Positions 33,880-64,000 of a stretch of DNA of 64,000 nucleotides are shown here, one piece after another. The position numbers and the translations under genes were made by a program. This stretch comes from Cyanobacteria bacterium P01_F01_bin.150 (GTDB taxonomy: Bacteria; Cyanobacteriota; Cyanobacteriia; CAKZMO01). The stretch lies in assembly GCA_039189765.1 (NCBI GenBank), contig JBCCYL010000026.1, positions 11,579 to 75,578 of the forward strand. The letters are read 5' to 3'. The first letter of the stretch is position 1. The number at the start of each line of letters is the position of its first letter. The notes beneath the pieces were generated by a model. The model was not told the DNA's origin. It searched no databases and saw only the letters and a program-made list of their open reading frames with translations.

Positions 33880-36360
33880 ATGACCAAGACTGAGTCAAAA
33901 TTTCGCTTAAGAGTGCAGCAGGTGGAACGGACCTGCTTGTTTGAACTTTCTTGGGGGAATGGACAGCAAATTTCTGCTCAAGTTGCCTTGCCTGATGGCC
34001 TAATGCAGCAATATCGTCTATGGAAACAGGCGTACCTCGATTTTTACCAGTACGCGCCCCAATTTTCCAATTCCAAAAGGTCTGTTCGATTGAGCGCTCA
34101 TGTCGAAGCCCAGCATCCCAACGCCTCAACGTCTCAACGTCCCGACCTCCTGCGAGGGCGAACGCTCAGTCAAGGAGAAATATCCGTGCCATCGCCAAAC
34201 TGGCATACTCAGCTCGTACAAGCCGAGGCAACGTTATTATCCGAATTCCAGCAGTGGCTACGACAGCGTGAACTATTTGATATTCGTTCCGCGATCGCCC
34301 AATCCCTAACGGATACTTCACTTCCTAAGGATTTAACGTCTCATCGTCCCAATGGTCCAACATCCACCACTGTTTTTCTTATTTGTACCCCTTTAGATTT
34401 AGCTCGATTCCCCTGGGAGAGTTGGGAATTGGGGACCGAATTTGGTGTAGCAAAACGTATTGCCATCGTGCGATCGCCTGCCAACATCCATTTTGAGGCC
34501 CATACTCAACCGCCGCGACGACGTCGGCCCAGAATCCTAGCTATTTTAGGAGACGAAACGGGGCTGGATTTCCAAGCCGATCGCAAAGCAGTCCAATCCT
34601 GCGAGAAGGTCGCAGACATTCAATTTGTAGGATGGCAACCAGGGCAATCGATCACCGAGTTGAAAACCCATATTTGCCAGACCATTGCCGAACCAGAAGG
34701 GTGGGACGTACTTTTTTTTGCGGGACACAGCAACGAAACTCAAATTACTGGCGGGGAGCTGGCGATTGCCCCCGGAGCATCCTTTTTAATTCGAGAAATT
34801 ACGCCCTATCTCATCACTGCCCGTCAACAGGGACTACAGGTGGCCATTTTTAACTCCTGTAGTGGTCTCAATATTGCTGAATCTTTGGTGAATTTAGGGT
34901 TTAGCCAGGTGGTGGTGATGCGAGAACCAATCCATAATCGAGTGGCCCAAGCGTTTCTTACTCGTTTTCTACAAAGCCTTGCATCCCACGAAGATGTGCA
35001 AGACTCCCTGCTGGCTGCGACCCAATATCTTCAGGCTAGTGCCAGCCTGACCTATCCTTCAGCCTATTTAATCCCGACGCTCTTTCGTCATTACCAATCC
35101 ACCTTGTTTCGAATTGAGCCTTCAGGGGTGATGTCACAGCTACGCAAATGGCTGCCTATCCGCTATGAGGCAATCGCCCTTACCCTACTTGCGGCAATTA
35201 GTTGGCCACTATCCGTCCAAAACCAGCTAGTTGAACAAAGGACATTAGTGCAAGCTCAATATCGACAGCTAACACAGCGAGCCAATACGATCGAACCTCC
35301 ACCGGTTGCCCTAGTTCGCATTGATAACGAATCTCTGCAAAGGAGGGGGATTAGTGCTCCAAAACCGATCAGTCAAGTTTATTTGGCCGATATTATTAAG
35401 CAGCTCACCCCCTATGGCCCGGAAGTGATTGGCATTGATTATATTTTAGACCGCCCCAACGTTCAGGAAGCCCCCCAGCTAGCCATGGCTATAGAGGAGG
35501 CGATCGCTAAAGGAACGGCCTTTGTATTTGCCAGCTATCGAGAAGATGGTAAATGGGTAAAAGCTTCCCCTGATATTGCGCCTGAAATCGCCGGACAAAG
35601 CATCGCTGGCGATATATCGGGCTGGACATTACGAATGAGTTTGCCCCGTTGGGTTGACGATGGACCACGCCCCCTGAGCTATGAATCAGTTCGCCTAAAA
35701 GTGCCTAATCTGCTTAATTATGGCCGCACCCAGAGGGGGATTTTGACATTTTTGTCCTACAGGTTCAAGCAACGTTGGCTTGACCCACTCATTGACTACT
35801 CCCTGCCTCCCCATCAGGTGTATGAAGAGGTACCGGCGTGGACCCTGTTTGACGGCCAAGTGCGGCCTCAACTTGGCGATTTAGACCAGCAGGTAGTGCT
35901 ACTAGTTCCTGGAGGTTATGCAGAAGCAGGGATTAAAGATGGTGAAGACAACAGACCTCCCACCCTTGCCATGCGCTATTGGTACGAACAACGGAACCCC
36001 ATTGATGGTCGGCAGCGAAATCTAACCGGAGGAGAAATCCACGCCTATCGACTACATCATTTTATGACCCAACGCTTGGTTATCCCAATTCCTGATCTTT
36101 GGCTGCTATTACTGGCCTCACTGTTAGGAAAGGCGATCGCACTTCAGTGGCAGAAGCCGCACAATCATAGCGGAAATCATAATCCTTGGCATTGGGTTGG
36201 CATCGGCATTGGTGGTAGCTTTGTCTACGGAATAATCAGTTTAGAACTCTATTTATCATCCACTGCCATTCTGCTGCCCATTAGCGTCCCTCTACTGGCC
36301 CTTTGGCTGTACATTGCTCCCATGGCCTTTTCATCCGATTTACGACGAGCTAATCGCTAA
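33880..36360 (+). CDS. CHAT (caspase-like) protease fused to a CHASE2 extracellular sensor and TM helices
   Basis: FPWESWE, FFAGHS (His) and IFNSC (Cys); TM near aa 430; CHASE2 motifs (VRID..SL, IGIDYILD, GGEIHAY); three C-terminal TMs. Confidence 0.9.
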   Translation: MTKTESKFRLRVQQVERTCLFELSWGNGQQISAQVALPDGLMQQYRLWKQAYLDFYQYAPQFSNSKRSVRLSAHVEAQHPNASTSQRPDLLRGRTLSQGEISVPSPNWHTQLVQAEATLLSEFQQWLRQRELFDIRSAIAQSLTDTSLPKDLTSHRPNGPTSTTVFLICTPLDLARFPWESWELGTEFGVAKRIAIVRSPANIHFEAHTQPPRRRRPRILAILGDETGLDFQADRKAVQSCEKVADIQFVGWQPGQSITELKTHICQTIAEPEGWDVLFFAGHSNETQITGGELAIAPGASFLIREITPYLITARQQGLQVAIFNSCSGLNIAESLVNLGFSQVVVMREPIHNRVAQAFLTRFLQSLASHEDVQDSLLAATQYLQASASLTYPSAYLIPTLFRHYQSTLFRIEPSGVMSQLRKWLPIRYEAIALTLLAAISWPLSVQNQLVEQRTLVQAQYRQLTQRANTIEPPPVALVRIDNESLQRRGISAPKPISQVYLADIIKQLTPYGPEVIGIDYILDRPNVQEAPQLAMAIEEAIAKGTAFVFASYREDGKWVKASPDIAPEIAGQSIAGDISGWTLRMSLPRWVDDGPRPLSYESVRLKVPNLLNYGRTQRGILTFLSYRFKQRWLDPLIDYSLPPHQVYEEVPAWTLFDGQVRPQLGDLDQQVVLLVPGGYAEAGIKDGEDNRPPTLAMRYWYEQRNPIDGRQRNLTGGEIHAYRLHHFMTQRLVIPIPDLWLLLLASLLGKAIALQWQKPHNHSGNHNPWHWVGIGIGGSFVYGIISLELYLSSTAILLPISVPLLALWLYIAPMAFSSDLRRANR

Positions 36361-36385
36361 TCCGTTTCCCCTTCAAGGAGATCCT

Positions 36386-37279
36386 ATGCCTCATTGCCAA
36401 TCCACTCCCTTACAGCCCACGTCCGCTCTGCCCCATCGCCAACATGCCCACTTACGATTTATGCGCCGCTACACTGGCCTCTTTTTCAGCCTGGCGTGCG
36501 GAGCTTCAGCCATTGTAGCGCCAATGCCAATCGCAGCTATCGCAGCGTCAGCACCAACGCCAGCGCCAGATCTGCATGCATTTTGGGATACGATAATCCA
36601 ATCCAATCCTCCTGAAGAGTTAGACCGTGACGGGTCCCGAGCGTTTCGCAATCTTTGGAACAGCATTTTCGAGACGGAACCCCCAGACGATCCTCAACAG
36701 AGTGGATCACGGGGCGACTATTTTTGTTTAGCAGAGCCGGGTAGTCATGATGGAATGGCGTGGAGTGATCGCCCCACCCTTACCTGGCAGGGAGACACGA
36801 GGGCAATTAGCATCTATTCTTCAGAGAATCCGCTTATCGCCCTTTGGACCCATGAGCTTTCAGAAGATGACCAGCTAACTTGGGTCGATGGCTCAAAGGC
36901 AAATGGTGAAGACAAACCGATTTATCGGGTGACATACGACGGAGAAGAGCATCTAAAACCAGGTGAAACGTATATTTGGAAAATCCAACAGGCATTGGCT
37001 GATATTCCTGTTCACATCACTCTGATGCCCAGCAGCAATCAGCAGCAGATCAGAATTGAGCTGGAAGCGCTGGAGATGACATTAGCCGTTGAGGAATTGG
37101 ATGGAGATGCGATCGCCCTACGAAAAGCAGACTTTTTTGCAAGTCACCATCTCTGGAATGACTTCTGGTACTATCTTGGCCTTATAGAATCTCCTTCAGG
37201 AGAACTGTCCAACCTTATGGAAGGGGCGATTGGAACCTGGTGCCCAGCTTATGATCCCAGTTCTCTTGAACGAGTATAG
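36386..37279 (+). CDS. DUF928-like exported protein
   Basis: AAGGAG RBS; GSRG..C, WSDRPT..W, L.PGETY.W and A..FA...LW.D; follows the CHASE2 gene. Confidence 0.75.
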   Translation: MPHCQSTPLQPTSALPHRQHAHLRFMRRYTGLFFSLACGASAIVAPMPIAAIAASAPTPAPDLHAFWDTIIQSNPPEELDRDGSRAFRNLWNSIFETEPPDDPQQSGSRGDYFCLAEPGSHDGMAWSDRPTLTWQGDTRAISIYSSENPLIALWTHELSEDDQLTWVDGSKANGEDKPIYRVTYDGEEHLKPGETYIWKIQQALADIPVHITLMPSSNQQQIRIELEALEMTLAVEELDGDAIALRKADFFASHHLWNDFWYYLGLIESPSGELSNLMEGAIGTWCPAYDPSSLERV

Positions 37280-47274: not shown

Positions 47275-47323
47275 AGTCCTCTCTCCGCCGTTGTCCTTGC
47301 CCTGCTCTCCCTGCTTGTGACCT

Positions 47324-50735: not shown

Positions 50736-51371
50736 ATGAATGAATTAAATCTATCAAAGGTTGTCAGTGAAAGCTGGAGGTTATTCTCTGAAAACCTCGT
50801 AGTTATTTTGTCCGTCTTTATTGTTTACATCATCGTAAGCATTCTCACATCTTTCTTGACTGCAGCCGTGCCTGAAGATGCGGTTGGTCTGGTTGTAATT
50901 GTCAACGTAATAGATTTCATGATCTCCTCTTTCCTGACGGCTGGCCTCTATAGATTTGGGCTAAATATCATACAAGGAAGAGATGCTGCTGTAGGAGATT
51001 TATTTTCGCAATCGGCTAGCACAACGCTAAAACTGATTGGATTGTCTATCCTCGTTGGATTACTCGTCTTAGTTGGGTTTATCCTACTGATCGTACCTGG
51101 AATTATCCTAGCCCTGAAATACTCCATGGTCTTCCAGGTTTTAATCGATGAGCGAGTTGGTCCACTGGAGGCGATGGATAAAAGTTCTCAGCTAACCTCT
51201 GGCCATAAACTCCAGTTATTCTTGCTTGGATTTATTAACCTGGGCATTATCATACTCGGAGCACTATGTTTTGGCATTGGCCTTCTGGTTGCACTTCCCG
51301 TCACGTGGCTGACAACATTCGTTGCCTATAAGATGCTCAATCCAGCCATCACAGATATGCAGCCTGTATAA
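50736..51371 (+). CDS. DUF975-like integral membrane protein
   Basis: Several TMs; GFILLIVPGIILALKYS and EAMDKS..LTSGHK.QLF. Confidence 0.8.
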   Translation: MNELNLSKVVSESWRLFSENLVVILSVFIVYIIVSILTSFLTAAVPEDAVGLVVIVNVIDFMISSFLTAGLYRFGLNIIQGRDAAVGDLFSQSASTTLKLIGLSILVGLLVLVGFILLIVPGIILALKYSMVFQVLIDERVGPLEAMDKSSQLTSGHKLQLFLLGFINLGIIILGALCFGIGLLVALPVTWLTTFVAYKMLNPAITDMQPV

Positions 51372-51481
51372 CTTATGTTGGTGATTGGACATCTAATCAG
51401 CGGCAGCCCTCTCTTAAATCCCATGATTCACAGATGAACGTGTTTAAGCCCAATAGGCCATTAGGGCATCAAGCTCAATCA

Positions 51482-52846
51482 TCAATCATCAAAAGAAAAG
51501 GGAGCAAGAGCGATCGGGTGTCCAGAGCCATTATCAATGACTACCCAAAAGCATTCTTGGCGATCGCCCACCACCTGGGCATATAAATAGCCATCGGAGC
51601 TTGTCGCCGATAGTTGACGATCGGCTAAGCATTGAGATTGATCGTACACGGTCAATCTCATTCCCATTGGAGCAGGCGTTCCTGGAGTAGTGCCTAAAAT
51701 AAGCAATAGGACCCATTCATTTTTATCTAATGGCCAGATGATGGCATATAGACGCAGGGTCAGTTCGTTTTGAACGATATCTTTGTAAGCACCTTGTGCG
51801 TGAGGGGAGATAGCAATTCCATCCGCATTGAGAGATGCAACAACAGTTTCAAAGTTATCGACGAGAGACGCTGATCGCAAACCTCTAAACCCCAGGGATA
51901 AAGACGGCATTAATACCCATTCCAGATCTTGGGCAATCTGCCCTAGTTGATTTTGCAACCATTGCCCAGCATTAACGATTGATGGAGCCAGGGGCTGTGC
52001 AGCTATTGATTCAATGTTTTGAGCACTGGACTGATACTTATCTTCAAACACGGGCCGTAGGGGCAATGGCTCTCGCCCCATCTGTAGCTGATAGAGCCAG
52101 TTTTGCTGCTCCACACATTGCAAAATAATGGCCGCCTCTTGCCAGGATAATACGTCTTCCAAGGGAAACTCAGGGTCCCGTAGCCGAGGCCAGAGTTGGT
52201 TCAGCCTTTGGGATAGGATGGCGATCGCATTAGTTTCTACACCTACGGCTTGGGGCAGCGGCACACTATTGGGGTCTAATCGTTCCAGAATCAGCAACAA
52301 CGAATCAACATCCGTTGTAAATGTTGCTTTAGCAATGTCGTAGGTCCATGATGTGGGGTTACGCTCAATAATCTGAGACATTAACTGAGAATGGGTGCCG
52401 TATCCTACCACTTGCACCTGCTGGTGCTCCTCAAGAACATCTACAAGAATATAAATCTGAGCCGCATAGTCTGACAGGTCCAGTACAGCACGGGGAATGG
52501 AAAGAATCGGATCGTCCAAGCATCCAAGCGCTAGTAAACACACCTTCATATTGTTGACCGATAGCTGGCAAACTGACTCAACAAGAGAAGCGATCGCAGG
52601 CTGATAGAGTGAGCAAGTCTCAGCATGGAGGGGAAAACGGGGCGATCGCGATCGCAACCATTGCTTAAATCCTGACAATGCCAGGGCATGGCGATAAATT
52701 TGCCATTGGCGGTCCGGTTTTGAGATTGCTTGGGATACTTGAACCGCATTTTCAATATCTGCGTTGCTGAGAGTAACGGTATCAAGCGGGAGGACAGTCC
52801 AATCCTGGCGGTCACTGGGGCCAGGATTACTAGGTGAAAACATCAT
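51482..52846 (-). CDS. DUF1822 family protein
   Basis: QWQIYRHALAL.GF.QWL, YILVDVLEE...V.VVGY, VNAGQWLQ and a C-terminal beta domain (YAQVVGD..E.F.V). Confidence 0.8.
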   Translation of the reverse strand: MMFSPSNPGPSDRQDWTVLPLDTVTLSNADIENAVQVSQAISKPDRQWQIYRHALALSGFKQWLRSRSPRFPLHAETCSLYQPAIASLVESVCQLSVNNMKVCLLALGCLDDPILSIPRAVLDLSDYAAQIYILVDVLEEHQQVQVVGYGTHSQLMSQIIERNPTSWTYDIAKATFTTDVDSLLLILERLDPNSVPLPQAVGVETNAIAILSQRLNQLWPRLRDPEFPLEDVLSWQEAAIILQCVEQQNWLYQLQMGREPLPLRPVFEDKYQSSAQNIESIAAQPLAPSIVNAGQWLQNQLGQIAQDLEWVLMPSLSLGFRGLRSASLVDNFETVVASLNADGIAISPHAQGAYKDIVQNELTLRLYAIIWPLDKNEWVLLLILGTTPGTPAPMGMRLTVYDQSQCLADRQLSATSSDGYLYAQVVGDRQECFWVVIDNGSGHPIALAPFSFDD

Positions 52847-52944
52847 AGGTTTAGCCCGAAGAAACGGGGTCGAAAAAAGGTTGTAGAAACGGAAGGACTA
52901 ACAGAAGACGCAATCAGAATAAGAAAAACAGGCAGAGCATTACA

Positions 52945-54357
52945 TTAAGCCGTACTTATAGACTTCAGGTAATCGCATAGGCGACGGGCAAATAAACTTT
53001 TTAGGGGATGGTGGCGGGTTCCACTAGTTTCGTCCACGGCTTCTTGGATAACAGCATTTACCTGCTCTTCCAAGGCTGAATCCATCTGCTGTAGTTGAGC
53101 AATATCTACATAAGAAGACGCTAACTTTTCTACTGAGGCGCATAACTTTGCCAACACAGCTCGTCGTACATCAGCTCGTATCTCCTTTAGTTTGAGTAAT
53201 CGAGTGACTTGGTATTGAGCCTTTAACTTTAGCGGTTTGGCAATCTCGCCCATCGACATGCCGCAGCAGTGAAACAAGTGCAGTCCTTGGACGAACTGAT
53301 CGGCGTTGCCTTTTTTGCTTTTTTGAAGCTGAGAGATGCGATCGCCCACAACTTCAGCGATGGCCTGATCTAAACAAATTTTGAGCTGGACACGATACTG
53401 GGCTAAAAAAGTATCAGCAGCATCTTCGTCCGGTGGTAGTTCTGCTGTTTTGTCCCCTACACTTACCTGCCCTTCTGGTGTATTCAACGATACGTTATCT
53501 GTCCTGCCCCCTCTGGCATAAATACGATATTGGCGTAAATAGTCAGCGAGCTGCCTCAAGGATTTCATAACATTTACGGGATTATTTAAAGTATTTGACT
53601 GGTACACCAACGACGCAGAGGCCCGCGACAATGTTTTTCGTTCCATAAACGCCACCATCCGTTGGAGTTGATCGGTGGATGGGGGAGAGCATAGGCGACC
53701 CTGGCGTTTTTTCAGTTTGAGGCGATCGCTTCGATAGACCTGATGATAAGCCGTTAACAAATAGGCATTGGTTTCTATTTCCATCTGACTTAGGGTATGA
53801 AATTCAGTCAAGATCCGCCGAAGCTGTTGCCCAGATGTATCATTCAAAATAGCCCAATCACTGACCCGATAGACCCCCTGCTCCAGCAAAAACTGATTGA
53901 GATCAGAATGCTGTTTAACCCGCTGAGTCACCCAATGACCTAAGCCAGCGCGCTCTAGATCAATAGTATTTAGAATATCCGTTGCCAATGAGACATTGGG
54001 GGTTTGGGTGGATGATTTGCGATAAAAACGACCGTCATCACTGAGAACATAAGGAAGTAAATCGAGCTGGGTAAACCCATGATTATGGCCAAACTGGTCG
54101 GCAAGCTGGGCACAAGCCTGATCGATCTGATAGGAAATAAAACATCGTAGACATATCTCAGCAAGTAGGGACTCTGGCGCTGATTGTGTCTGCATTTGCT
54201 TCCATAACGTCCATTGGACATCACGATTAGGCAAATCCGTCAGGCCATTGCCAAAAATCTGACCCAGAAAATCAGCGGCCTCTGTTACCTGTCGGCGTTG
54301 GCGTTGTCCTCCCATATTCAAAGTAATCATTTGGCTATAGTGTGATACAACTGCCAT
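52945..54357 (-). CDS. Large sigma-70-like/HetZ-like putative transcription factor
   Basis: CLRCFISYQI, region-2-like IDLERAGLGHWV and C-terminal HTH GMSMGEIA..L.L.AQYQVTRLL; directly upstream of DUF1822. Confidence 0.65.
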   Translation of the reverse strand: MAVVSHYSQMITLNMGGQRQRRQVTEAADFLGQIFGNGLTDLPNRDVQWTLWKQMQTQSAPESLLAEICLRCFISYQIDQACAQLADQFGHNHGFTQLDLLPYVLSDDGRFYRKSSTQTPNVSLATDILNTIDLERAGLGHWVTQRVKQHSDLNQFLLEQGVYRVSDWAILNDTSGQQLRRILTEFHTLSQMEIETNAYLLTAYHQVYRSDRLKLKKRQGRLCSPPSTDQLQRMVAFMERKTLSRASASLVYQSNTLNNPVNVMKSLRQLADYLRQYRIYARGGRTDNVSLNTPEGQVSVGDKTAELPPDEDAADTFLAQYRVQLKICLDQAIAEVVGDRISQLQKSKKGNADQFVQGLHLFHCCGMSMGEIAKPLKLKAQYQVTRLLKLKEIRADVRRAVLAKLCASVEKLASSYVDIAQLQQMDSALEEQVNAVIQEAVDETSGTRHHPLKSLFARRLCDYLKSISTA

Positions 54358-54824
54358 GAAAATTCACAACTATCCTCATTGGTTCAACACAGGGATTGAC
54401 TCGAAACTACAATGCCGATTTGTTATGGCGACCTAGCACGAGGCTTTAACCCAGCCATAAGATTATCAGCATAGTTTGTGGCTTCAAATCAGTTTGCCCT
54501 TGAAAGCAAGAAACATGGAACACAAAACGCTCTGGTTTCCCATCGACTAACTGCTCGGCCCTCAAAACTTCTTAAATATGGAGGTCTGTGAGGTATGCAT
54601 TCTCAAACCAGTGAAATGTAAACTTTTTTAAATAATCCATTTAATCTGTGCTCTGCTGTCGATAACTCATTGTGTGCGTTCTTAATAACGTGTCGGCAAT
54701 CCGAAGTAATCGGAAACACCTTGCCCCTATCTAAAAACACCGCACACGCTCCCTATACAGTCCGCTATCGACTCGTCTTGGTCGGGTTGTCCATGTTGAA
54801 CTGTCCTTTCACTAGCTGTCTTCT

Positions 54825-55583
54825 ATGTGTACTGAAGCAAGTCGTCCCCATGACTCTGACCATCCCCTTATCCATCGCCTGTGGCAGGCGTTCCAAAATC
54901 ATGACGCACTGACAACACTGCTATCTGAACCTGAAACCCTGCGCACCATTATGAACACGGTGGAAATTCGACGCTGGCTATTTGAAGAGATTCAGCGCCA
55001 GTCCAACGGCTGCGATCCCTGTGCGACCCAGGCTAGTCAAAATCTGATTCGCATGATGGAAGCATCCAAAATGATTCGAGGTAGGGGCTATATTGCCGAG
55101 GACATATATGCCGAAGCATATTCGCGAACATGTGAGTGGTTATTAAAAAAGCTTCCGACCTATGACCCTGAAAAAGCCAGCTTTGTCCACTGGTTCAATA
55201 AGAAATTAGCGTGGACGATTCATGATGGGTTTCGAGAACGAGCAGAACGTCTGAAAAGAGAAGTATCAAGGGACGCTTCTGCTAAAGACCCTGAATTGCC
55301 CACGCAGCAAAACAATTACTCGTGGCAAGAAATCGTCAAAGAATGGATCGACCGTGTGGAAAGAAACAAACCAGACCTTCGTCGCTGTCGAATGCAAGAC
55401 CCCTATTCCTACATCAATGGCTATGACTTATTACTTCAAATTCTACAGTCCATGCTCACAGAAAAGTTCTCAATTGACCAGGTCGATTGGGACGCCCTTG
55501 CCCAATCACAAAATATTGCCCCCGCCTCCCTTAAACGCTTTTGTCAAACTCGCTGTTTTCGGATATTTAAGACTCTGCCCTAA
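54825..55583 (+). CDS. Divergent ECF-type sigma-70-like factor
   Basis: Region-2-like DIYAEAYSRTCEWL.KKL.TYDPEKASFVHWFN; C-terminal HTH WDALAQSQNIAPASLKRF. Confidence 0.75.
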   Translation: MCTEASRPHDSDHPLIHRLWQAFQNHDALTTLLSEPETLRTIMNTVEIRRWLFEEIQRQSNGCDPCATQASQNLIRMMEASKMIRGRGYIAEDIYAEAYSRTCEWLLKKLPTYDPEKASFVHWFNKKLAWTIHDGFRERAERLKREVSRDASAKDPELPTQQNNYSWQEIVKEWIDRVERNKPDLRRCRMQDPYSYINGYDLLLQILQSMLTEKFSIDQVDWDALAQSQNIAPASLKRFCQTRCFRIFKTLP

Positions 55584-55613
55584 ACATAAAAGCAATTGAA
55601 ACTACACCCAACA

Positions 55614-55743
55614 CCCAACTCTTTAACTCCCCAACTCTTTAACTCCCCAACTCTTTAACTCCCCAACTCTTTAACTCCCCAACTCTTTAACTCCCCAACT
55701 CTTTAACTCTCCAACTCTCCAACTCCCCAACTCTTTAACTCTC
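55614..55743. repeat. Intergenic tandem repeat (8-bp subunits AACTCTTT/AACTCCCC, 16-bp period)
   Basis: CCAACTCTTTAACTCC repeated, ending about 10 bp before the ATG at 55754. Confidence 0.95.
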
Positions 55744-55753
55744 ACCTAAACCT

Positions 55754-57010
55754 ATGCTTGACACTACCGAATCTCCACTACCCATTACTCTGCCAATTAG
55801 CGCCAGCGATCGCCACCAAGCCACCACCTTTGCGAACCAGCAACCCAATGCGACCAAAGCCGAACAGGTCTATCGCAATACCTTAGCCGTACTGGCCACT
55901 CAGAAATACCTCCAGCTTTTGGGCATTGAGACTAGCCTTGAAGATAGTCATAGCTGGAATCCGCTGCATCAGGTATTAAGCAATGTCGCCGATTTAGTGA
56001 TTCTTATTTTTCCTGATGTGCCTAAATATCTGGACTGTCGGCCAGTGGAAAAAGGCGATCGCACCTGCACTATCCCTGAATCGGTCTGGAGGCCAAACCC
56101 AAACCATCCAGAGCCAGATGATATAAAAGTTCCCCATTTAATGGGCCATGTGCTGGTGCAGTTAGATGAACCTTATCAGGTTGCCGAGATCCTGGGTTTT
56201 AAAAAACCTGTTTCTACTAAGGACTTTTCGTTAAAACAGCTTCAACCACTGCCCGATTTGATCGACGAGTTTTTAGAACCTGAACCCGTCTTTGATCACA
56301 GCTCTATATCCGTTCCTTTGCATAGGTGGCTAGACAGCAGAATTACAGAAGGATGGCAACAAATAACCCAGGAATTAAAAAAACAATGGTCACTATTTCA
56401 ATACGACATGCTGGTAACTGCGATGGAAATGCGAGGGGGGGGACCAGAAGACACAATGGTACCTGCGATGAGAATGCGATCGGTTAAAACTCCCACCCCT
56501 ATTCCTGAACGGATCAGACAACGAATTGAAGCACTATATTCCCAAGAGTTTGGTCCTTCTGGAGAGGCTGTAGATCACGACGGCCAAAGTAATCAAACGG
56601 ATGCTTTACTCCAGATTATGCAAACGACCCAAAGTGATGAGACTCGTTGGCAAGCGGCAGAACTGTTATGGTCAGTTGAGCCCCAGCATCCCCAAAGTCC
56701 AGTAATCACTCTTAAAGATCTGGGGATTTATTTAAATAAGCAAACGGTCGCCCTAATAGTCGGTCTGTTACCCAAAGAGGATGGATCATTTTTGATTCTG
56801 ACACGGGCTTGTCCTATGGCTGAGGCCAAAGCGTTGCCCTCTGGTCTAACCCTAACAGGATGGGACGAAAATAACGACCCGTTTTTTAGCGTGGAGGCAC
56901 GACAGCGTGACCAGTATGTTCAATTTAAATTTACGGCGGAGAGGGGCGATCGCTTTAGCCTAAAAGTAACGCTCGACGGTCACCAATTTACCGAATCCTT
57001 TATGGTTTAG
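55754..57010 (+). CDS. DUF1822 family protein
   Basis: FANQQP...KAEQVY.NTLAVLA...YL..LGI.T.L..S.SWNP, LDCRPV, L.RWL....EGWQ and EARQRDQYVQ.KF....GDRFS. Confidence 0.9.
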   Translation: MLDTTESPLPITLPISASDRHQATTFANQQPNATKAEQVYRNTLAVLATQKYLQLLGIETSLEDSHSWNPLHQVLSNVADLVILIFPDVPKYLDCRPVEKGDRTCTIPESVWRPNPNHPEPDDIKVPHLMGHVLVQLDEPYQVAEILGFKKPVSTKDFSLKQLQPLPDLIDEFLEPEPVFDHSSISVPLHRWLDSRITEGWQQITQELKKQWSLFQYDMLVTAMEMRGGGPEDTMVPAMRMRSVKTPTPIPERIRQRIEALYSQEFGPSGEAVDHDGQSNQTDALLQIMQTTQSDETRWQAAELLWSVEPQHPQSPVITLKDLGIYLNKQTVALIVGLLPKEDGSFLILTRACPMAEAKALPSGLTLTGWDENNDPFFSVEARQRDQYVQFKFTAERGDRFSLKVTLDGHQFTESFMV

Positions 57011-57015
57011 CGACT

Positions 57016-57071
57016 ATAACGGCTTCAAATTAGCCATTTTTAAGTTCTGTGACGGCCTCAGTATCGCCCAG
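57016..57071 (+). pseudogene. 56-bp remnant of a CHAT catalytic-Cys coding segment
   Basis: 50/56 identical to 58209-58264; reads NGFKLAIFKFCDGLSIAQ, then Q and a stop. Confidence 0.8.
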
Positions 57072-57274
57072 CAGTAGTTTATCTTCATCCAAATTCCTTA
57101 GTGGCTCCAGCGATGATTTTAATCGTGTTTGTTTTGACGACTCTATGACCAAGCGTTGGCATTTTTCCGCCTTGCATTCCCTAGGTAATCATGCGATCTA
57201 TTTAGTAAGCTGTCTGCCCCAGTTCAATGACAAGTTCAATAATCTTTGATATTTGATAGCATTTCCCACCCCCC

Positions 57275-60097
57275 ATGATCTCTTCTTCGTCATCTACGTC
57301 CCCTTCTGAAAACATTACCGTTGTCCTAGAGATTTATAGCGGTAGCTTTGCCGATGGATTCGGAGTAACGCTCCAAATTTTAGACAATGGTCAAATCATT
57401 CATCACTATGATAAGAGCGCTCGATTAACCCTTCCACCTGCCCCTAAAATTCCAGGCTTATTTGAGCAATGGCACGACATGAACCGGGCTGGGGATACCC
57501 TTGTGCGGAAAATGTCTTCAGAAAAGACGCAGGATCTGCCGCGACAGATGACCCCAGAATATATTCAGCATCTTCAGGAACAGCACATACCAGAAGACTC
57601 GATTCGGGGTATCAAGCCTGTTGGGGAGCAAGTGACCCATGTTAATGCCAAAGTCTGGCGACAACTGGCCGATAATCTAGAGACTAGCTGCAAGCAATGG
57701 TTTGAGGATCAAGCCTTTGACTACTTGAGCCTGAAAATTCAACATCCGGTTGAAGTGCGGCAAGATAGTTCAGTACCGATTATTATCAATCCTCAAACGG
57801 AAGATCCCACCCAAAATTACATTCTGAAGAATCTACCGTGGCATGACTGGTGGAGTCTGTTTAAAGAACTAAAGCATTCAGAGTTTGCTCTCTTTGGAAA
57901 GTTTCGGAGGCGTACGTCTCATCTTGAAGCCCCAATCAGAATCCTTGCTATTTTTGGCAACCACAGCCAGCTTAACCTAGGCCAGGATAAAGAAGCATTA
58001 TCACGCCTAGAAGCCCGAGGAGCTAAAATCAAACCCTTGCTGGAACCGGGTGAAACGGAGCTAAAGCGAACGTTAGCGGACGGACAATGGAATATTCTTT
58101 TCTTCGCTGGTCATAGCAGCAGTGAAGGGGATAGTGGAATGATTCAGATTAATAGATCTACCACTCTATCCCTGGCAGAACTAAGTCCTTCCTTCCTGCG
58201 CGCAGTCGATAACGGTTTAAAGTTAGCCATTTTTAATTCCTGCGACGGCCTCAGTATCGCCCAGTTTTTGGCTGATAAAGCAGCAATTCCCACAAGTATT
58301 GTGATGCGTCAACCCTTGCCTGATCAGATTGCGGGGCAGTTTTTACTGGATTTTCTGACCCAATTTTCCCAAGGCACTCCTCTGTATCGTTCTGTTCGCC
58401 TAGCTCGTGAAAAGTTGCCCTCCCAGCATGACTTTCCAGCAGTCGATTGGTTGCCAACGGTGTGTGCCAATCCCAATCAACCGGAATTTATTTGGCCCTC
58501 CGAATCAATAGTTCCGCCCCCCCCAGACCCACCGTCCTCTCCTCCAAAGTCCAGGTGGCATAAGAAAAAAACAATTCTCGTGTTGCTCTTTTTGCTCGGC
58601 TTAGCGATGGTGTTATGGATTGGCAAAATCGTTAGCCCTCCAGCAGGCGAAACTGATATTGTTCTGGAGCCCCTCATCAGCCAAGGAGAAAACATTGTTG
58701 AAGACACTAGAATTAGTTTATCCGATCCCTATCTTTCCCTAAAGAACCAGGGTATTGAAGCGTTTATCAAGGGGGATTACGATACAGCCTATCAGAACTT
58801 CCGCAGTCTACGGCAGCAGGCGAAGCGAGATAAGGATTCGGTAAGTAAAGCGATCGCCACCCCTGCCCTTGCCGCTCTCCAGGACTACGAAAGCCTAATC
58901 TATAGCAACAATTCCCTTGTCCTGAAGCATCAGCAAGAAAATCCCGGCCTGCCAGTGTACAACATTGCCATTGCCGCACCGTTTAACTTTGAGGCAGGGA
59001 TTTCTATCGCCTATGGCGTAGCCCATGCCCAAGATGTCTTCGTTAATCGGCAGAAGCTAAATCTACTGGTGACTTTGGCCAATGACAGCAATAATGAAGA
59101 CCAAGCCCAGGCAGTTGCCGAAGCCCTAAGTAATGACGGCAAGATGCTTGCCGCCGTTGGGCACTATACATCGGCTAACTCCTGTGCTGCCCTGCAAAAG
59201 TACGACCCACAGAATTTAGTGCTGATGTCTCCCACCAGCACTACGGTCAATTTGGCCTCTCGGATTGAATGTGGCGGCAATAAAAATGGGGTCTTTTTCC
59301 GCACCGTCTCCACTACCAGAGTTGAAGCTGAGACGTTGGTGAACTATCTAATTAAAGATTTGGCGATCGCCCAGCCCAAGATCGCCATGTTTTATAATCC
59401 CAATGAACTCTTTAGCCGCAATGTGGCAGAACAGTTCCAACAGGTGGTGCAAGCCTTCGGTGGCAAGGTAACGTCCTATGATCTATCCGATCCAAAATTC
59501 AAAACCAATCAGCTACCCACCGAGGCCCGAGGTGCTGATGCCTTAGTGATTTTGCCCGATGGCGGTACCAACAATACCAACGCCTTTGATAAGGGCATCG
59601 ACGTGCTAAAGCTAAACGCGGGGGAAAAGCCTGTTTTGGCAGGAAATGTGTTTTACCTTAAAGAGGTGCTGGATCAGGTCGATGCCGAGGCAGTGGTGGA
59701 TCGCATGTTTATCGCAGTCGATTGGCATCCCAAACAGTGTGGTGCTGAGGAGTTTAGTCAGCAAACCCGTGAATATTGGGGCGGCGACCTCAACCGCCGC
59801 ACGGCCTTGGCCTACGAAGCGGTACAAGCGATCGCCCAAGCGATTACTCAATCCACCAAAGGAGAGGTCGATCCCACGACCGCTGTCACCCGTCAACGAA
59901 TCCGTCAAAAGCTGGCGGAAACTGGGATTCAAAAAAATACGGCGGCGGAGAGTGCCACGATGGAGGATACGTTAATTAGCTTTGATGCCTTGGGCGATCG
60001 CAATGAAATTACCACCCGCCAAATTGTCACCGTTGCTGAGAGTAACGATCAGCTCCGCTTTGAACTCGTTAACCAGGGGGACTGCCAGCCAGAATAA
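57275..60097 (+). CDS. CHAT protease - TM - periplasmic binding protein (LivJ/ANF-receptor-like) receptor, copy 1
   Basis: LPWHDW, FFAGHS and IFNSCDG; KKK then TM ILVLLFLLGLAMVLWIG; AAVGHYTS, MSPTST, FFRTV and RTALAYEAV. Confidence 0.9.
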   Translation: MISSSSSTSPSENITVVLEIYSGSFADGFGVTLQILDNGQIIHHYDKSARLTLPPAPKIPGLFEQWHDMNRAGDTLVRKMSSEKTQDLPRQMTPEYIQHLQEQHIPEDSIRGIKPVGEQVTHVNAKVWRQLADNLETSCKQWFEDQAFDYLSLKIQHPVEVRQDSSVPIIINPQTEDPTQNYILKNLPWHDWWSLFKELKHSEFALFGKFRRRTSHLEAPIRILAIFGNHSQLNLGQDKEALSRLEARGAKIKPLLEPGETELKRTLADGQWNILFFAGHSSSEGDSGMIQINRSTTLSLAELSPSFLRAVDNGLKLAIFNSCDGLSIAQFLADKAAIPTSIVMRQPLPDQIAGQFLLDFLTQFSQGTPLYRSVRLAREKLPSQHDFPAVDWLPTVCANPNQPEFIWPSESIVPPPPDPPSSPPKSRWHKKKTILVLLFLLGLAMVLWIGKIVSPPAGETDIVLEPLISQGENIVEDTRISLSDPYLSLKNQGIEAFIKGDYDTAYQNFRSLRQQAKRDKDSVSKAIATPALAALQDYESLIYSNNSLVLKHQQENPGLPVYNIAIAAPFNFEAGISIAYGVAHAQDVFVNRQKLNLLVTLANDSNNEDQAQAVAEALSNDGKMLAAVGHYTSANSCAALQKYDPQNLVLMSPTSTTVNLASRIECGGNKNGVFFRTVSTTRVEAETLVNYLIKDLAIAQPKIAMFYNPNELFSRNVAEQFQQVVQAFGGKVTSYDLSDPKFKTNQLPTEARGADALVILPDGGTNNTNAFDKGIDVLKLNAGEKPVLAGNVFYLKEVLDQVDAEAVVDRMFIAVDWHPKQCGAEEFSQQTREYWGGDLNRRTALAYEAVQAIAQAITQSTKGEVDPTTAVTRQRIRQKLAETGIQKNTAAESATMEDTLISFDALGDRNEITTRQIVTVAESNDQLRFELVNQGDCQPE

Positions 60098-60170
60098 ATA
60101 CAGATTTAACTACAGCGTCAACGTTTTGATGATTTAATCCTAATGATTCAATCCCCATGATTTAATCCCT

Positions 60171-62963
60171 ATGATCCAATCTCCAGCATCCACTCCCGGT
60201 CTCTCAGTCGCTCCCTTTGAAAACATCACCGTTGTTCTTCGGATTAACAGCGGCAGCTTTGCCGCTGGGTTTGAAGTGACGCTGCAAATTTTGGATAACG
60301 GTCAGATTATTCAAGAAGACGATCGCTTTCTGGAGCTGCCTGCGGAACCCACTATTCCCAAACTCTACGCCCAGTGGCAGAGCTTATCCCAGGAACAGAG
60401 TATGGACTTTCAGCGAGCCATTGACCGGGGCATCAAGCCCGTGGCGGTGCAGGTCACCAACGTTGAGGACTGGAGTCAATTAACCGATCAGCTAGCCCAT
60501 CAGTGTCGTCAGTGGTTTAAGAGCGCATCGTTTGTTAATTTGAGCGCTCGCATCCGGGCCAACCGCAAGGTTCATATGGACGGCTCAATTCCCATTATTA
60601 TTCGCTCCCAAACCGGAATCTTAGAACAGGATCAAATATTGTCTCAGCTACCTTGGCACCTGTGGTGGGATCTATTTTCCAATCTCCCAAATGCGGAATT
60701 TGCCATGTTTAGCGGCTTTCGAGAAAAATCACCCGCGCTGCAATTTCCCATCCGGATATTAGCTATTTTTGGTAGCCCCAGCGGCAATCTTAATTTTACC
60801 CAGGAAGTTCGAGCGCTGGAGCTATTAAAGCAGCGGGGGGCCAGCCTTAAGCAGTTAGTAGAACCCACCATTGACGCCCTATCGGACAGACTGTTTGAAC
60901 AGCCATGGGATATTTTATTTTTTGCGGGCCATAGTTCCTGCCACGGCGAAAGTGGCACCATTCAGCTTAATGAACAAACCAATTTACGCCTGGATGAACT
61001 GCGTCAGGGTCTTCGCTATGCCGTGAACCAGGGGCTACGACTAGCGATTTTTAACTCCTGCGACGGGGTAAAGTTGGCTAATTTTCTGGCAAACGAGGTC
61101 AATATTCCCTCGTCCATTGTGATGCGACAGCCAGTACCAGACCAAATTGCCGGTAAATTCCTGCTGGACTTTCTCCAGGAGTTTTCCAAAGGCACTCCTC
61201 TCTATCGCTCCGTACGCCTTGCCCGTGGACGACTTGAGGGACTCCAGCGCAATTTCCCAGGGGCGTCATGGTTACCCACGATATTTGTAAATCCCAATCA
61301 GCCAGAGCTAATATGGCCTTCAGCCACTGAGGATGTTGCACTGATTGAAAGTGGTGCTGCATCAACGGCCTTTGGGCAAGCTCAAAAAGAGCCGCAGCCT
61401 CCAAAGCGTGGGGGGCAGAAGAAGGCGATCGCCCTTCCTATCCTGATCGGTCTGGGACTGGTTGGATTGGTGACGGCTTTACTGATGGGCAGAGCTTTTC
61501 GTCGTCCACCAGAGAAACCCCTGACGGTTGAGGTTGATAGCTTTATCAGTCAGGGAGAAAATAGCCTAGAAGATACCAGAATTGCCCTAGCTCCCTCCTA
61601 TTTAGGGATGAAGCAACGGGGAATTGATGCGTTTAGAGCGGGGGACTACGCCACTGCCTTTCTACTCTTTGACGAGCTAAGGAATCAGGCTAAACAGGAG
61701 AAAAATGCTGCCGACCCCAGTATTGCGAAACCCGCCCTAGCTGCTCTCCAAGACTATGAGAGCCTAATCTATCGCAACAATGCCCTAATTCTGAGGCAGA
61801 AACAGCAGAACCCAGATCTGCCAACCTATAACGTTGCCGTAGCGGCCCCCCTTAATTTTGACGCTGGAACCGGCCTTGCCTATGGGGTCGCCCAAGCCCA
61901 GGACGTATTTGTCAATCAACAGGGCCTCAATCTTTTGGTGACCCTGGCCAATGATGGCAATCAGGAAGTCCGCACCCAGGCGATCGCCCAGGACCTTGCC
62001 TCAACCGACGATATTTTGGCCGTTGTCGGACACTACACCTCCCCCAATTCCTGTGTGGCCCTCCAGTCATACTCCCCCCAAAGGCTAGTGATGATGTCCC
62101 CCACCAGCACCGCCATTGCCCTCCAGTCCGATCCCACCTGCGGCGATATCAATAACGTCTTTTTCCGGACGGTATCCAGCACCCGGTTTGAAGCCCAAAC
62201 GTTAGTTAATTATTTAATTGATGATTTGGCGATCGCCCAGCCTAATTTAGCGGTCTTTTATAACTACAACGAACTGTTTAGCCGCAATTTAGCCGAACAG
62301 TTTCAAGAGGTGGTCCGGGCTTTTGAAGGCAGCGTCACGACCTATGATCTCTCCGACCCTGAATTTAAGCCCAACCGTCTGCCCACGGTGGCAGAGTCTG
62401 CGGATGCGTTGGTTATTCTGCCAGATGGTGGCACTAATGATACCGCAGCCTTCGACCAAGCCATCAATATCCTCAAGCTAAACCAGGGTGAAAAACCTGT
62501 ACTGGGGTCCAACACTTTCTATCTCCAGACCGTCCTAAACCAAGTTGAGGCAGATGCCCTGGTCGATCGGCTATTTATGGCAGATGACTGGCATCCCCAA
62601 CAGTGTGGCGCTGAGCAGTTTAGCCAGCAAACCCGTGAATACTGGGGCGGGGACCTCAACCGGCGGACGGCCCTGGCCTATGACGCGGTGCAGGCGATTG
62701 CCCAAGCCATTACCCTGGCAGCGGAGGAGAATGGAACCCCAACCAAGACTGTTACCCGCCAGCAGGTTCGGCAAAAGTTAGCGGAAACCGGTATTCGCCC
62801 AGAGACCGCAGCGAGAAGCGCCACCAGTGCGGATATGATCATTAGCTTTGATGAGAATGGCGATCGCAAAGAGATTACCACCCGCCAAATTGTTACCGTT
62901 GCAGAGAGTAATAATCAGCTCCGCTTTGAATTAGTTGATCAGGGCGATTGTCCATCCCCATAG
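60171..62963 (+). CDS. CHAT protease - TM - periplasmic binding protein receptor, copy 2 (tandem paralog)
   Basis: LPWHLW, FFAGHS and IFNSCDG; TM AIALPILIGLGLVGLVTALLMG; AVVGHYTS, MSPTST, FFRTV and RTALAYDAV. Confidence 0.9.
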   Translation: MIQSPASTPGLSVAPFENITVVLRINSGSFAAGFEVTLQILDNGQIIQEDDRFLELPAEPTIPKLYAQWQSLSQEQSMDFQRAIDRGIKPVAVQVTNVEDWSQLTDQLAHQCRQWFKSASFVNLSARIRANRKVHMDGSIPIIIRSQTGILEQDQILSQLPWHLWWDLFSNLPNAEFAMFSGFREKSPALQFPIRILAIFGSPSGNLNFTQEVRALELLKQRGASLKQLVEPTIDALSDRLFEQPWDILFFAGHSSCHGESGTIQLNEQTNLRLDELRQGLRYAVNQGLRLAIFNSCDGVKLANFLANEVNIPSSIVMRQPVPDQIAGKFLLDFLQEFSKGTPLYRSVRLARGRLEGLQRNFPGASWLPTIFVNPNQPELIWPSATEDVALIESGAASTAFGQAQKEPQPPKRGGQKKAIALPILIGLGLVGLVTALLMGRAFRRPPEKPLTVEVDSFISQGENSLEDTRIALAPSYLGMKQRGIDAFRAGDYATAFLLFDELRNQAKQEKNAADPSIAKPALAALQDYESLIYRNNALILRQKQQNPDLPTYNVAVAAPLNFDAGTGLAYGVAQAQDVFVNQQGLNLLVTLANDGNQEVRTQAIAQDLASTDDILAVVGHYTSPNSCVALQSYSPQRLVMMSPTSTAIALQSDPTCGDINNVFFRTVSSTRFEAQTLVNYLIDDLAIAQPNLAVFYNYNELFSRNLAEQFQEVVRAFEGSVTTYDLSDPEFKPNRLPTVAESADALVILPDGGTNDTAAFDQAINILKLNQGEKPVLGSNTFYLQTVLNQVEADALVDRLFMADDWHPQQCGAEQFSQQTREYWGGDLNRRTALAYDAVQAIAQAITLAAEENGTPTKTVTRQQVRQKLAETGIRPETAARSATSADMIISFDENGDRKEITTRQIVTVAESNNQLRFELVDQGDCPSP

Positions 62964-63044
62964 AAGATATCAAAAAGCATGTCCCTCAAATGTGGCATAT
63001 ATGGGATTTGCGATGCTTCCAGAACTGAAGACAAAACGAAGAAT

Positions 63045-63324
63045 CTATTCGTCGTCATCTTGACGCTGTTCCATCAGCAGACCCAGAATATTGCGGTTTT
63101 CTGCCTGAAGCCCTCGGATATACACACCGTTTTCTTTAATCCAGCGACTATTTTCTTCGATCTGTTGACCGAGTGTAGCCAATAGATCTACGTACTTCAA
63201 CCATAGACTCTTTGATATCACGGCTGTTTTGTTCAATTTGGCACTGATGTTGCTGAATCCCCAGCATCATTATTTCTGCAAGGGCTTCAATGCGGTCCAG
63301 GCGGCTGGAAGTAGAGTCAGTCAT
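63045..63324 (-). pseudogene. Frameshifted small cyanobacterial coiled-coil protein gene
   Basis: MTDSTSSRLDRIEALAE...VRRSI continues in another frame as ATLGQQIEENSR...IRGLQAENRNIL; one extra base near 63180. Confidence 0.65.
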
Positions 63325-63408
63325 GAACTTTTGCGCTGAGATAGTACTCAAAATTATATCAAATAGAGAACAAATGACCTGCTTATGAGATGAGATGATT
63401 AGAGACGC

Positions 63409-63528
63409 GATCGCTATGTCATTGATTTTCGAATGCAAACCGAGGTGGGCGCTTCAATGGTGAGGAGTGCTTGGATTATCAGAACTGGAGAGCTATATCC
63501 ACGGTTGACCAGTGTTTATCCAATTTAG
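63409..63528 (+). pseudogene. 3' remnant of a DUF6883-like putative toxin gene
   Basis: Reads DRYVIDFRMQTEVGASMVRSAWIIRTGELYPRLTSVYPI*; in-frame TAG at 63400; directly upstream of DUF4926. Confidence 0.65.
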
Positions 63529-63549
63529 CAGACTGATCGAACTGTAAGT

Positions 63550-63816
63550 ATGCCAGAGGAGAATGTCATGAATTCAATCTATCTACACGATGTTGTTGCC
63601 TTAATGGAAGATACAATTGCCCAACGATTTCCTGTTGGCGGCAAAATTTTACTGCGGCGGGGACAGGTAGGTACGGTGATTGAAGAACTTGCAGCAGGGG
63701 AAGCGTTTGAGGTGGAATTTGCTGAGGCAGATGGACAAGTTTATGCCATGCTTGCCGTCAAAGCTGAGAATCTTATGCGTTTGCATTATGCACCAACAGA
63801 GCTAGCAGCAGGCTAG
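63550..63816 (+). CDS. DUF4926 domain protein
   Basis: LHDVVAL.ED...LRRGQVGTVIE...AFEVEF....GQ.YAML; the start may be at 63568. Confidence 0.85.
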   Translation: MPEENVMNSIYLHDVVALMEDTIAQRFPVGGKILLRRGQVGTVIEELAAGEAFEVEFAEADGQVYAMLAVKAENLMRLHYAPTELAAG

Positions 63817-64000
63817 GCAAATGTAGCAATATAAGCAGATGGACATAATTAATTTAATGAAAATCGGGGTGTGCGCCCCTTCGCTCAGCTTCAGAACAAG
63901 CTCACCTCTATTTACACAAGATTAGTGAAGTTGTTGATGATTGAGCCGAGGCCATGGGTTCACGGCACTCCCGAGGTCTTGATTGTCGCACCGGTAAATG

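Follow-up and report, generated by a model that had tools for sequence, protein, structure and literature searches.

The 64,000-nucleotide window of Cyanobacteria bacterium P01_F01_bin.150 analyzed here (contig JBCCYL010000026.1, positions 11,579 to 75,578) contains, at 51482-62963, two divergent pairs of genes, each encoding a sigma-like protein and a DUF1822 protein. The rightward pair continues into two genes for membrane receptors that carry a CHAT protease domain. This arrangement raises the question of whether an extracellular signal could reach a dedicated sigma factor through a protease and, if so, which receptor acts on which pair and which protein is cut. All six genes are real: two encode DUF1822 proteins, two encode receptors, and two encode very divergent sigma-like proteins. 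The region very probably holds two members of a cyanobacterial signaling module that combines a receptor-caspase, a private sigma factor, and a DUF1822 protein. Its parts, with lengths in amino acids (aa), are as follows.

51482..52846, minus strand: DUF1822 protein, 454 aa (PF08852, 1.1e-42), partner of the 470-aa sigma-like protein P0001
52945..54357, minus strand: P0001, 470 aa, a long and divergent protein of the sigma-70 family, encoded by the first gene of the leftward pair
54358..54824: divergent intergenic region of 467 bp between the two sigma-like genes, the presumed site of both promoters
54825..55583, plus strand: P0002, a divergent sigma factor resembling the extracytoplasmic function (ECF) type, 252 aa, first gene of the rightward cassette
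55754..57010, plus strand: soluble DUF1822 protein, 418 aa (PF08852, 1.7e-57), partner of the 252-aa sigma-like protein P0002
57275..60097, plus strand: receptor 1, 940 aa, with an N-terminal module and CHAT domain, a transmembrane (TM) helix, and a LivJ-type Peripla_BP_6 domain
60171..62963, plus strand: receptor 2, 930 aa, tandem paralog of receptor 1

We assign both the 252-aa and the 470-aa proteins to the sigma-70 family as probable members, through homologs, profile comparison, and predicted folds only. No profile library calls either protein a sigma factor directly, and a PDB sequence search with both family profiles gave no sigma match at E<=10. BLAST detected no significant similarity between the two proteins, and comparison of the profiles of their families returned a probability of 47%, limited to a region 2-like motif of 29 columns. 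Homologs of the 252-aa protein came from an exhaustive profile search, which collected 218 representatives; of the 69 that were aligned, 15 matched Pfam Sigma70_r2 (best 1.7e-7). The AlphaFold model of the 252-aa protein has a pLDDT of 90. When this model was compared with known structures by VIA-align, the top 41 rows were sigma factors or RNA polymerase initiation complexes with three exceptions (one RNA-guided transcription complex and two integrative models), and the predicted fold was closest to sigmaE, SigW, and AlgU. The 470-aa family has more than 600 cyanobacterial homologs, every one of them named "hypothetical." Its profile aligned with a paralogous cassette protein over 223 columns that run from the "FDP" motif of region 2 as far as the helix-turn-helix of region 4 (hhalign probability 90.7%, E 1.3e-6), and that paralog passes NCBIfam TIGR02937 with 108 bits against a cutoff of 42.9. 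The fold matches of the 470-aa protein are sigmaS, sigmaA, and sigma32.

Neither the sigma-like proteins nor the DUF1822 proteins contain a hydrophobic segment. The 418-aa DUF1822 protein consists of a conserved N-terminal part (residues 16-205) and a conserved C-terminal part (286-418), with a gap-rich, poorly conserved linker at 211-255. BLAST found no significant similarity between the two DUF1822 proteins of the window. In receptors 1 and 2, Pfam identified CHAT (PF12770) at 2.9e-7 and 3e-10, together with Peripla_BP_6 in each, and no TPR family in either. The catalytic His (in LFFAGHS) and Cys (in FNSC) are invariant across 17 receptors aligned from the host genome, and a conserved module of about 200 residues, within the first 215, precedes CHAT in all 17. 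Each receptor has a single hydrophobic helix, at 430-457 in receptor 1 and 417-443 in receptor 2, preceded by a stretch rich in K, R, and H. By this basic stretch before the sole TM helix, the N-terminal protease is oriented toward the cytoplasm and the binding domain toward the periplasm, so that CHAT, DUF1822, and the sigma-like proteins are all predicted to share the cytoplasmic compartment. The sequence-only reading of this DNA had described the same anatomy, and in this it was correct: two divergent cassettes of sigma-like and DUF1822 genes (upheld by PF08852 and by the homologs, profiles, and folds given above) and two receptors with a cytoplasmic CHAT domain, an intact His/Cys dyad, one TM helix after basic residues, and a periplasmic LivJ-type domain.

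The host genome (10.6 Mb) has 20 DUF1822 genes, and we examined the 18 loci outside the window. At 15 of these, DUF1822 is followed by a receptor combining CHAT with CHASE2 and then by a DUF928 gene. A sigma-like open reading frame (ORF) lies directly upstream of DUF1822 in 16 of the 18; of the other two, locus L025 is cut by the contig end and L032 has none. The upstream sigma-like proteins form three linked groups: proteins of ECF size, proteins of about 400 aa that are TIGR02937 positive, and proteins of 460 to 496 aa. The 252-aa protein joins the first group weakly, and the 470-aa protein falls in the last. Across 17 in-genome pairs, the similarity matrices of sigma-like and DUF1822 proteins correlate with a Spearman coefficient of 0.765, a value reached in none of 2,000 permutations, which indicates that the members of a pair duplicate and diverge together. 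Such codivergence fits a cognate partnership; duplication of whole cassettes alone would yield it too.

Several loci depart from the common layout. At L032 (L032:2061-13941, contig C86), DUF1822, CHAT-CHASE2, and DUF928 follow one another with no upstream sigma-like ORF of at least 110 aa; upstream are a subtilase of 940 aa that carries RTX repeats and, next, a TPR-CHAT protein, likewise of 940 aa. At L035 (L035:5625-9758, contig C61), the sigma-like/DUF1822 pair is followed by a 140-aa ORF and a protein combining Peptidase_C14 (orthocaspase) with GUN4, and a different caspase-type partner may serve this pair. In two related genomes (L097:3484-10380 and L098:3575-10380), two cassettes stand head to tail in the order long sigma, DUF1822, CHAT-CHASE2, ECF-size sigma, DUF1822, with the second sigma/DUF1822 pair in the usual place of DUF928. 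L098 also has a separate 470-aa ORF matching a hidden Markov model of the periplasmic binding protein (PBP) domain at 3e-48, and a CHAT fragment at the edge of the locus.

The sequence-only reading had presented the pathway as one not known to be characterized, a view that gives way to a published computational study. Kaur, Iyer, Burroughs, and Aravind (eLife 2021; PMC8195603) catalogued neighborhoods of EACC2-caspase, ECF sigma factor, and DUF1822 genes, and the available text of their paper sets out a model of sensing, stimulus-induced activation of the autopeptidase (caspase), and output through the ECF sigma factor. The module is thus already catalogued computationally; it is real and well conserved, and it is not a new kind of system. 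What the window adds is a member with a LivJ-type sensor, a tandem duplication of the receptor, the lack of DUF928 in cassettes with PBP-type receptors, and a second cassette that is split. In the literature that we searched, whose scope left most subscription-journal papers outside, we found no experiment on the DUF1822/CHAT/sigma module.

In the available text of Kaur et al., DUF1822 is labeled a TPR protein (PMC8195603). Features from the ESM Atlas relate the N-terminal part of the 418-aa protein (about residues 6-187) to small tailed-phage proteins and to the N-terminal part of Melainabacteria TonB_2-domain proteins, and its C-terminal part (313-418) to a CarboxypepD_reg-like beta-sandwich. 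In one DUF1822 cluster of the same atlas, 96% of the members carry TRADD-like_N. These likenesses do not fit a simple TPR description.

The rightward cassette differs from the common form in its sensor, which is of the LivJ type instead of CHASE2, and in lacking a DUF928 gene as far as the contig end. The orthologous locus of Desmonostoc vinosum, the only relative of receptor 1 found in a search of genome contigs, likewise has no DUF928 gene and consists of a sigma-like gene (37% identical), DUF1822, and a single CHAT-TM-Peripla_BP_6 receptor (48% identical). DUF928 follows 15 of 15 CHASE2 receptors that adjoin a DUF1822 gene, versus none of three PBP receptors. This co-occurrence leads us to infer a joint role of DUF928 and CHASE2 on the periplasmic side. 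Overall identity between receptors 1 and 2 is 58%, against 70% in the PBP part and 45% in the first 215 residues. They are sisters (support 96/91) in a tree built from 31 rows of the cytoplasmic module, which dates their duplication after the split from Desmonostoc. In the same tree the three PBP receptors form a 100/100 clade inside a major 100/100 clade that includes CHASE2 receptors; the inner branch order of this major clade lacks resolution, so the tree does not give the direction of any sensor exchange. The LivJ-type form without DUF928 is rarer than the CHASE2 form, is conserved in Desmonostoc, and is duplicated in its receptor here.

Which receptor serves the leftward pair is a separate matter. 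No protease gene follows it; the next gene encodes a DUF975 membrane protein on the opposite strand. A sample of 151 genomes of the class includes 35 with P0001-type sigma factors. In 15 of 15 loci from other genomes, these are followed by DUF1822, to which the 454-aa protein of the window is 34 to 38% identical. A CHAT receptor comes next in 13 of these 15 loci, with CHASE2, confirmed by Pfam, in all 12 that are uncut by a contig end; of the remaining two loci, one ends with its contig and one has no CHAT receptor. Together with the 15 of 18 loci of the host genome in which DUF1822 precedes CHAT-CHASE2 and DUF928, these counts show a conserved linkage of sigma, DUF1822, and CHAT genes. Two further features of the window are relevant here.

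33880..36360, plus strand: CHAT-CHASE2 receptor, 826 aa (Pfam CHASE2 3.9e-14, CHAT 1.4e-7), without an adjoining sigma or DUF1822 gene
36314..37279, plus strand: 321-aa ORF that overlaps the CHAT-CHASE2 gene at its end and may be a strongly diverged DUF928-like partner (weak BLAST match)

With the receptor fragment of the closest P0001-type locus, the receptor at 33880-36360 shares 54.5% identity over 352 aa; it is 40 to 46% identical over about 850 aa to eight other P0001-type receptors and 35 to 36% identical to two. Its identity to the receptor types of the host genome is 25 to 31% for six and 37% for that of L038. In the tree of the cytoplasmic module, it nests in a 100/100 clade of receptors linked to P0001-type sigma factors. 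By sequence orthology, then, it is the receptor of the leftward pair and, given the linkage in other genomes, the second cassette is split: its receptor is encoded on the opposite strand, some 15 kb away from the sigma/DUF1822 pair. The 321-aa ORF has no Pfam match; its BLAST match to the DUF928-like gene of the L038 cassette (1.5e-5) is weak. A receptor, it follows, need not adjoin its sigma/DUF1822 pair, which matters for censuses that count only neighbors.

This assignment goes against the layout suggested by the sequence-only reading, with both cassettes as one unit under the two LivJ-type receptors. On that view, each LivJ-type receptor would serve one of the two pairs, and the distant CHAT-CHASE2 protein would not be the receptor of the leftward one. 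Two receptors and two sigma/DUF1822 pairs do lie around one divergent promoter region, and sensors that are 70% identical beside N-terminal modules that are 45% identical are what like ligands and unlike cytoplasmic partners would produce. The Desmonostoc ortholog, however, has one receptor and the ECF-like pair only, the duplication that made receptors 1 and 2 sisters is recent, and P0001-type pairs have a CHAT receptor of their own in 13 of 15 loci elsewhere, with the ortholog of that receptor at 33880-36360. We regard control of the leftward pair by a LivJ-type receptor as improbable and return to the split cassette as the better description.

The closest in-genome paralog of the leftward pair (L039:2773-10235, contig C34) comprises a sigma-like protein of 460 aa and a 450-aa protein with a weak DUF1822 match, followed by a soluble 1445-aa TPR-CHAT protein with a PPC domain in place of a membrane receptor; a collagen-repeat protein is encoded nearby.

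How might a receptor with a cytoplasmic protease act on a sigma factor? A plausible but tentative answer, reached from sequence and by analogy, is that CHAT cleaves DUF1822 and so frees the cognate sigma factor; every functional step of it is inferred. DUF1822 would hold its cognate sigma factor inactive in the cytoplasm until a small periplasmic ligand bound the sensor domain. Binding would switch on CHAT across the single TM helix, probably via a changed oligomeric state of the receptor, and CHAT would then cut DUF1822, most likely in the variable linker between its domains. The freed sigma would direct RNA polymerase to a private regulon, and the host genome would run about 20 such channels. 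We counted in favor of this mechanism the conserved linkage, the codivergence of the pairs, the invariant catalytic dyad, the shared compartment, and the two-part structure of DUF1822 with its linker. To these we added as precedents HetF, the weak sequence links of HetZ-family proteins to sigma-70 models and of one cassette sigma to HetZ_rel_2 and the type III-E CRISPR sigma model, and the route from sensing to a sigma output put forward by Kaur et al.

The best experimental precedent for cleavage of DUF1822, by analogy, is HetF of Anabaena sp. PCC 7120 (Xing et al., PNAS 2022; PMC9457339), described in the available text as a CHAT-TM-periplasmic protease that cleaves soluble PatU3 after Arg117; PatU3 is proposed to sequester the transcription regulator HetZ. 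The HetF analogy drawn in the sequence-only reading is therefore sound. A more specific version of the mechanism would make the module a kinase-free, one-step transmembrane pathway, in which a periplasmic solute activates a cytoplasmic caspase-like protease. The protease would cut the variable linker of DUF1822, itself an anti-sigma factor with a fold of a new class, and so release a private sigma factor. There the LivJ-type ligand would be amino-acid-like, and HetF-PatU3-HetZ would be a specialized analog or a very distant derivative. This version, taken together, strikes us as possible but rather doubtful.

Several observations weigh against cleavage of DUF1822. Sigma/DUF1822 pairs without an adjacent CHAT gene occur at L030, at L100, and in the leftward pair of the window. 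Pfam at E<=0.01 finds DUF1822 alone in both proteins and no anti-sigma domain, and DUF1822, at 350 to 450 aa, is much larger than typical cytoplasmic anti-sigma domains. Nor did profile comparisons link these proteins to PatU or HetZ. A comparison of PatU, the unsplit form of the gene for PatU3 (28 sequences, a set drawn from 31 of 121 genomes), with DUF1822 (56 sequences) gave an hhalign probability of 0.1%, by which PatU is ruled out as a DUF1822 homolog at the profile level, and the ESM Atlas feature score of DUF1822 to a "putative PatU" cluster is only 0.77. P0001 likewise gave no signal as a HetZ relative, its profile having a probability of 0.13% against that of HetZ. With neither PatU-DUF1822 nor P0001-HetZ homology detected, the HetF precedent is one of analogy and not of membership. 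Finally, the mechanism offered in the available text of Kaur et al. is receptor autoproteolysis and not cleavage of DUF1822 (PMC8195603).

If autoproteolysis operates, ligand-activated CHAT would cut its own receptor and release the constant N-terminal module, and DUF1822 would be an adaptor linking the freed fragment to the sigma factor and not a substrate. The proposal was made for exactly such a neighborhood (PMC8195603), the 215 N-terminal residues form a constant module in all 17 aligned receptors, and the CHAT-bearing anti-sigma factor DdvA is proposed to cleave itself in trans within a dimer (PMC11506125). It explains the tight codivergence of DUF1822 and sigma no better than direct binding does, and we consider it unlikely.

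The target could instead be the sigma factor itself. CHAT would then trim an inhibitory N-terminal extension from the sigma-like protein, with DUF1822 as a scaffold or chaperone that presents the sigma factor to the receptor. Both sigma-like proteins of the window carry sequence before the region 2-like domain; in the 252-aa protein this amounts to about 45 residues, and structural matches begin near residue 37-47. Several paralogs (L027, L029, and L037) have N-terminal extensions of 150 to 250 residues. The length of the extension is nevertheless highly variable, the shortest paralogs (216 aa) have none, and there is no precedent for such processing with CHAT proteases, which leaves little probability for this explanation.

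A last alternative gives the protease a destructive task: in a conflict or programmed-death system, CHAT would degrade many cell proteins after a danger signal, which has been proposed for caspase systems of bacteria, and the sigma/DUF1822 pair would regulate only the expression of the system. The available text of Kaur et al. places EACC2-caspase proteins among the apoptosis-like and immunity systems of multicellular bacteria (PMC8195603), and many paralogs per genome with rapid swapping of sensors (CHASE2 and PBP) are typical of conflict systems. Sensors of the extracytoplasmic solute type (CHASE2 and Peripla_BP_6), by contrast, suit environmental sensing better than detection of an invader, about 20 dedicated sigma factors point to transcriptional outputs, and Pfam scans, with PADLOC not run, showed no other defense genes beside the cassettes. 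We judge this possibility very improbable. Release of sigma by cleavage of DUF1822 is thus the mechanism with which we continue.

A consensus scan for promoters and terminators in 51000-64000 returned nothing above chance (10 promoter-like sites, versus 17.1 in shuffled sequence), and no ECF-type promoter motif was found in that interval. Among sequencing runs, one contains this DNA, a marine metagenome that may be its source, and no RNA run is listed. Elsewhere in the window, a VIT+VWA protein of 915 aa (19694-22441) and a VWA protein of 422 aa (29195-30463) are encoded, and an RTX/serralysin-C protein of 356 aa (32240-33310) lies just upstream of the lone CHAT-CHASE2 gene. At 46285-49489, a 329-aa protein without a Pfam match is followed by a 721-aa AAA_16/NACHT-like ATPase.

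Were the proposed mechanism true, cyanobacteria would possess a large receptor-protease family that converts external signals straight into sigma activity, with neither kinases nor a site-1/site-2 cascade. On the more specific, one-step version, each genome would have about 20 insulated channels, and filamentous cyanobacteria would have a major signaling system equal in rank to two-component and classical ECF systems. The module is an attractive experimental target of moderate interest. Its LivJ-type variant may be the most tractable member, having three gene types only and an ortholog in a Nostocales genome (Desmonostoc). Solute-binding domains of the LivJ-type family lend themselves to expression on their own and to ligand screening.

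Among related known systems are the classical ECF pairs such as RseA-sigmaE and RsiW-SigW, in which a private sigma factor is encoded beside its inhibitor and is activated by regulated proteolysis after an extracytoplasmic signal. The cassettes resemble them in that a private sigma factor adjoins a presumed inhibitor, and the 252-aa protein has a fold nearest to sigmaE, SigW, and AlgU. Unlike the inhibitors of those pairs, DUF1822 has no detectable anti-sigma domain and no TM segment; features of the class I and zinc anti-sigma factors (ASD or zf-HC2, with a TM anchor) were not found in either DUF1822 protein of the window. The protease is here a caspase-like domain fused to the sensor, in contrast to a site-1/site-2 cascade. 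In the type III-E craspase, reported by Strecker et al. in 2022, the TPR-CHAT protein Csx29 is said to cut Csx30, a partner linked to an ECF-type sigma factor. The likeness lies in a CHAT protease whose cleavage target is reportedly linked to a sigma factor; the difference is that craspase is activated in the cytoplasm by target RNA through Cas7-11, whereas the input here comes from a transmembrane sensor and Pfam finds no TPR in the receptors. One cassette sigma matches the NCBIfam model of the type III-E CRISPR sigma factor at 1.9e-7, below the cutoff.

Another such system is DdvA-DdvS of Myxococcus xanthus (Sci Adv 2024; PMC11506125), in which, by the available text, an ECF sigma factor is under the control of its cognate single-pass CHAT membrane protein; CHAT proteolysis induced by a signal has been proposed. 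The topology of DdvA is reversed: its TPR-CHAT part is periplasmic, its zinc anti-sigma domain is cytoplasmic and in the same chain, and intramembrane proteolysis by RseP follows downstream (PMC11506125). In the cassettes described here, CHAT is predicted in the cytoplasm and the sensor in the periplasm, and the sigma factor would be held by DUF1822, which is soluble and a chain of its own. HetF shares with the receptors a CHAT domain in the cytoplasm, a TM segment, and a domain in the periplasm, and the protein that it cleaves is a soluble inhibitor proposed to sequester a regulator. The periplasmic part of HetF is TPR, whereas that of the receptors is solute binding, and hetF is not adjacent to hetZ-patU. 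The receptors are not HetF equivalogs, scoring 24 and 13.8 bits with NF045509 against a cutoff of 1200, in the catalytic region only (best E 1e-5). The host genome has HetZ-family proteins of its own: HetZ (647 bits), a HetZ-related protein, and HetZ-related protein 2 (L046:4152-6564, L047:4983-6419, and L045:4989-6143). All three were scanned, and HetZ and HetZ_rel_2 gave weak matches to the sigma-70 model TIGR02937 (6e-7 and 3e-4); the cassette sigma that matches the type III-E model also matches HetZ_rel_2 at 7e-6. In the HetZ-PatU pair of this genome (L046), translational coupling joins HetZ to a PatU of 362 aa that is not split.

The system of Kaur et al. is the one to which the cassettes correspond most directly. 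According to the available text (PMC8195603), that work is purely computational and proposes autoproteolysis; its constant N-terminal alpha+beta EACC2 domain lies ahead of the caspase, in the position taken here by the conserved module of about 200 residues. Features of that system found in the cassettes are an intact His-Cys CHAT domain, a TM helix with a variable sensor (Peripla_BP_6, or CHASE2 in the paralogs), and neighboring genes for DUF1822 and an ECF-type sigma factor. In the published neighborhoods, too, the C-terminal region is variable and possibly extracellular behind a TM segment, and genes for an ECF-type sigma factor and DUF1822 adjoin (PMC8195603). The two systems are alike in gene set, in gene order, in the constant N-terminal module joined to a caspase or CHAT domain, and in the logic proposed for them.

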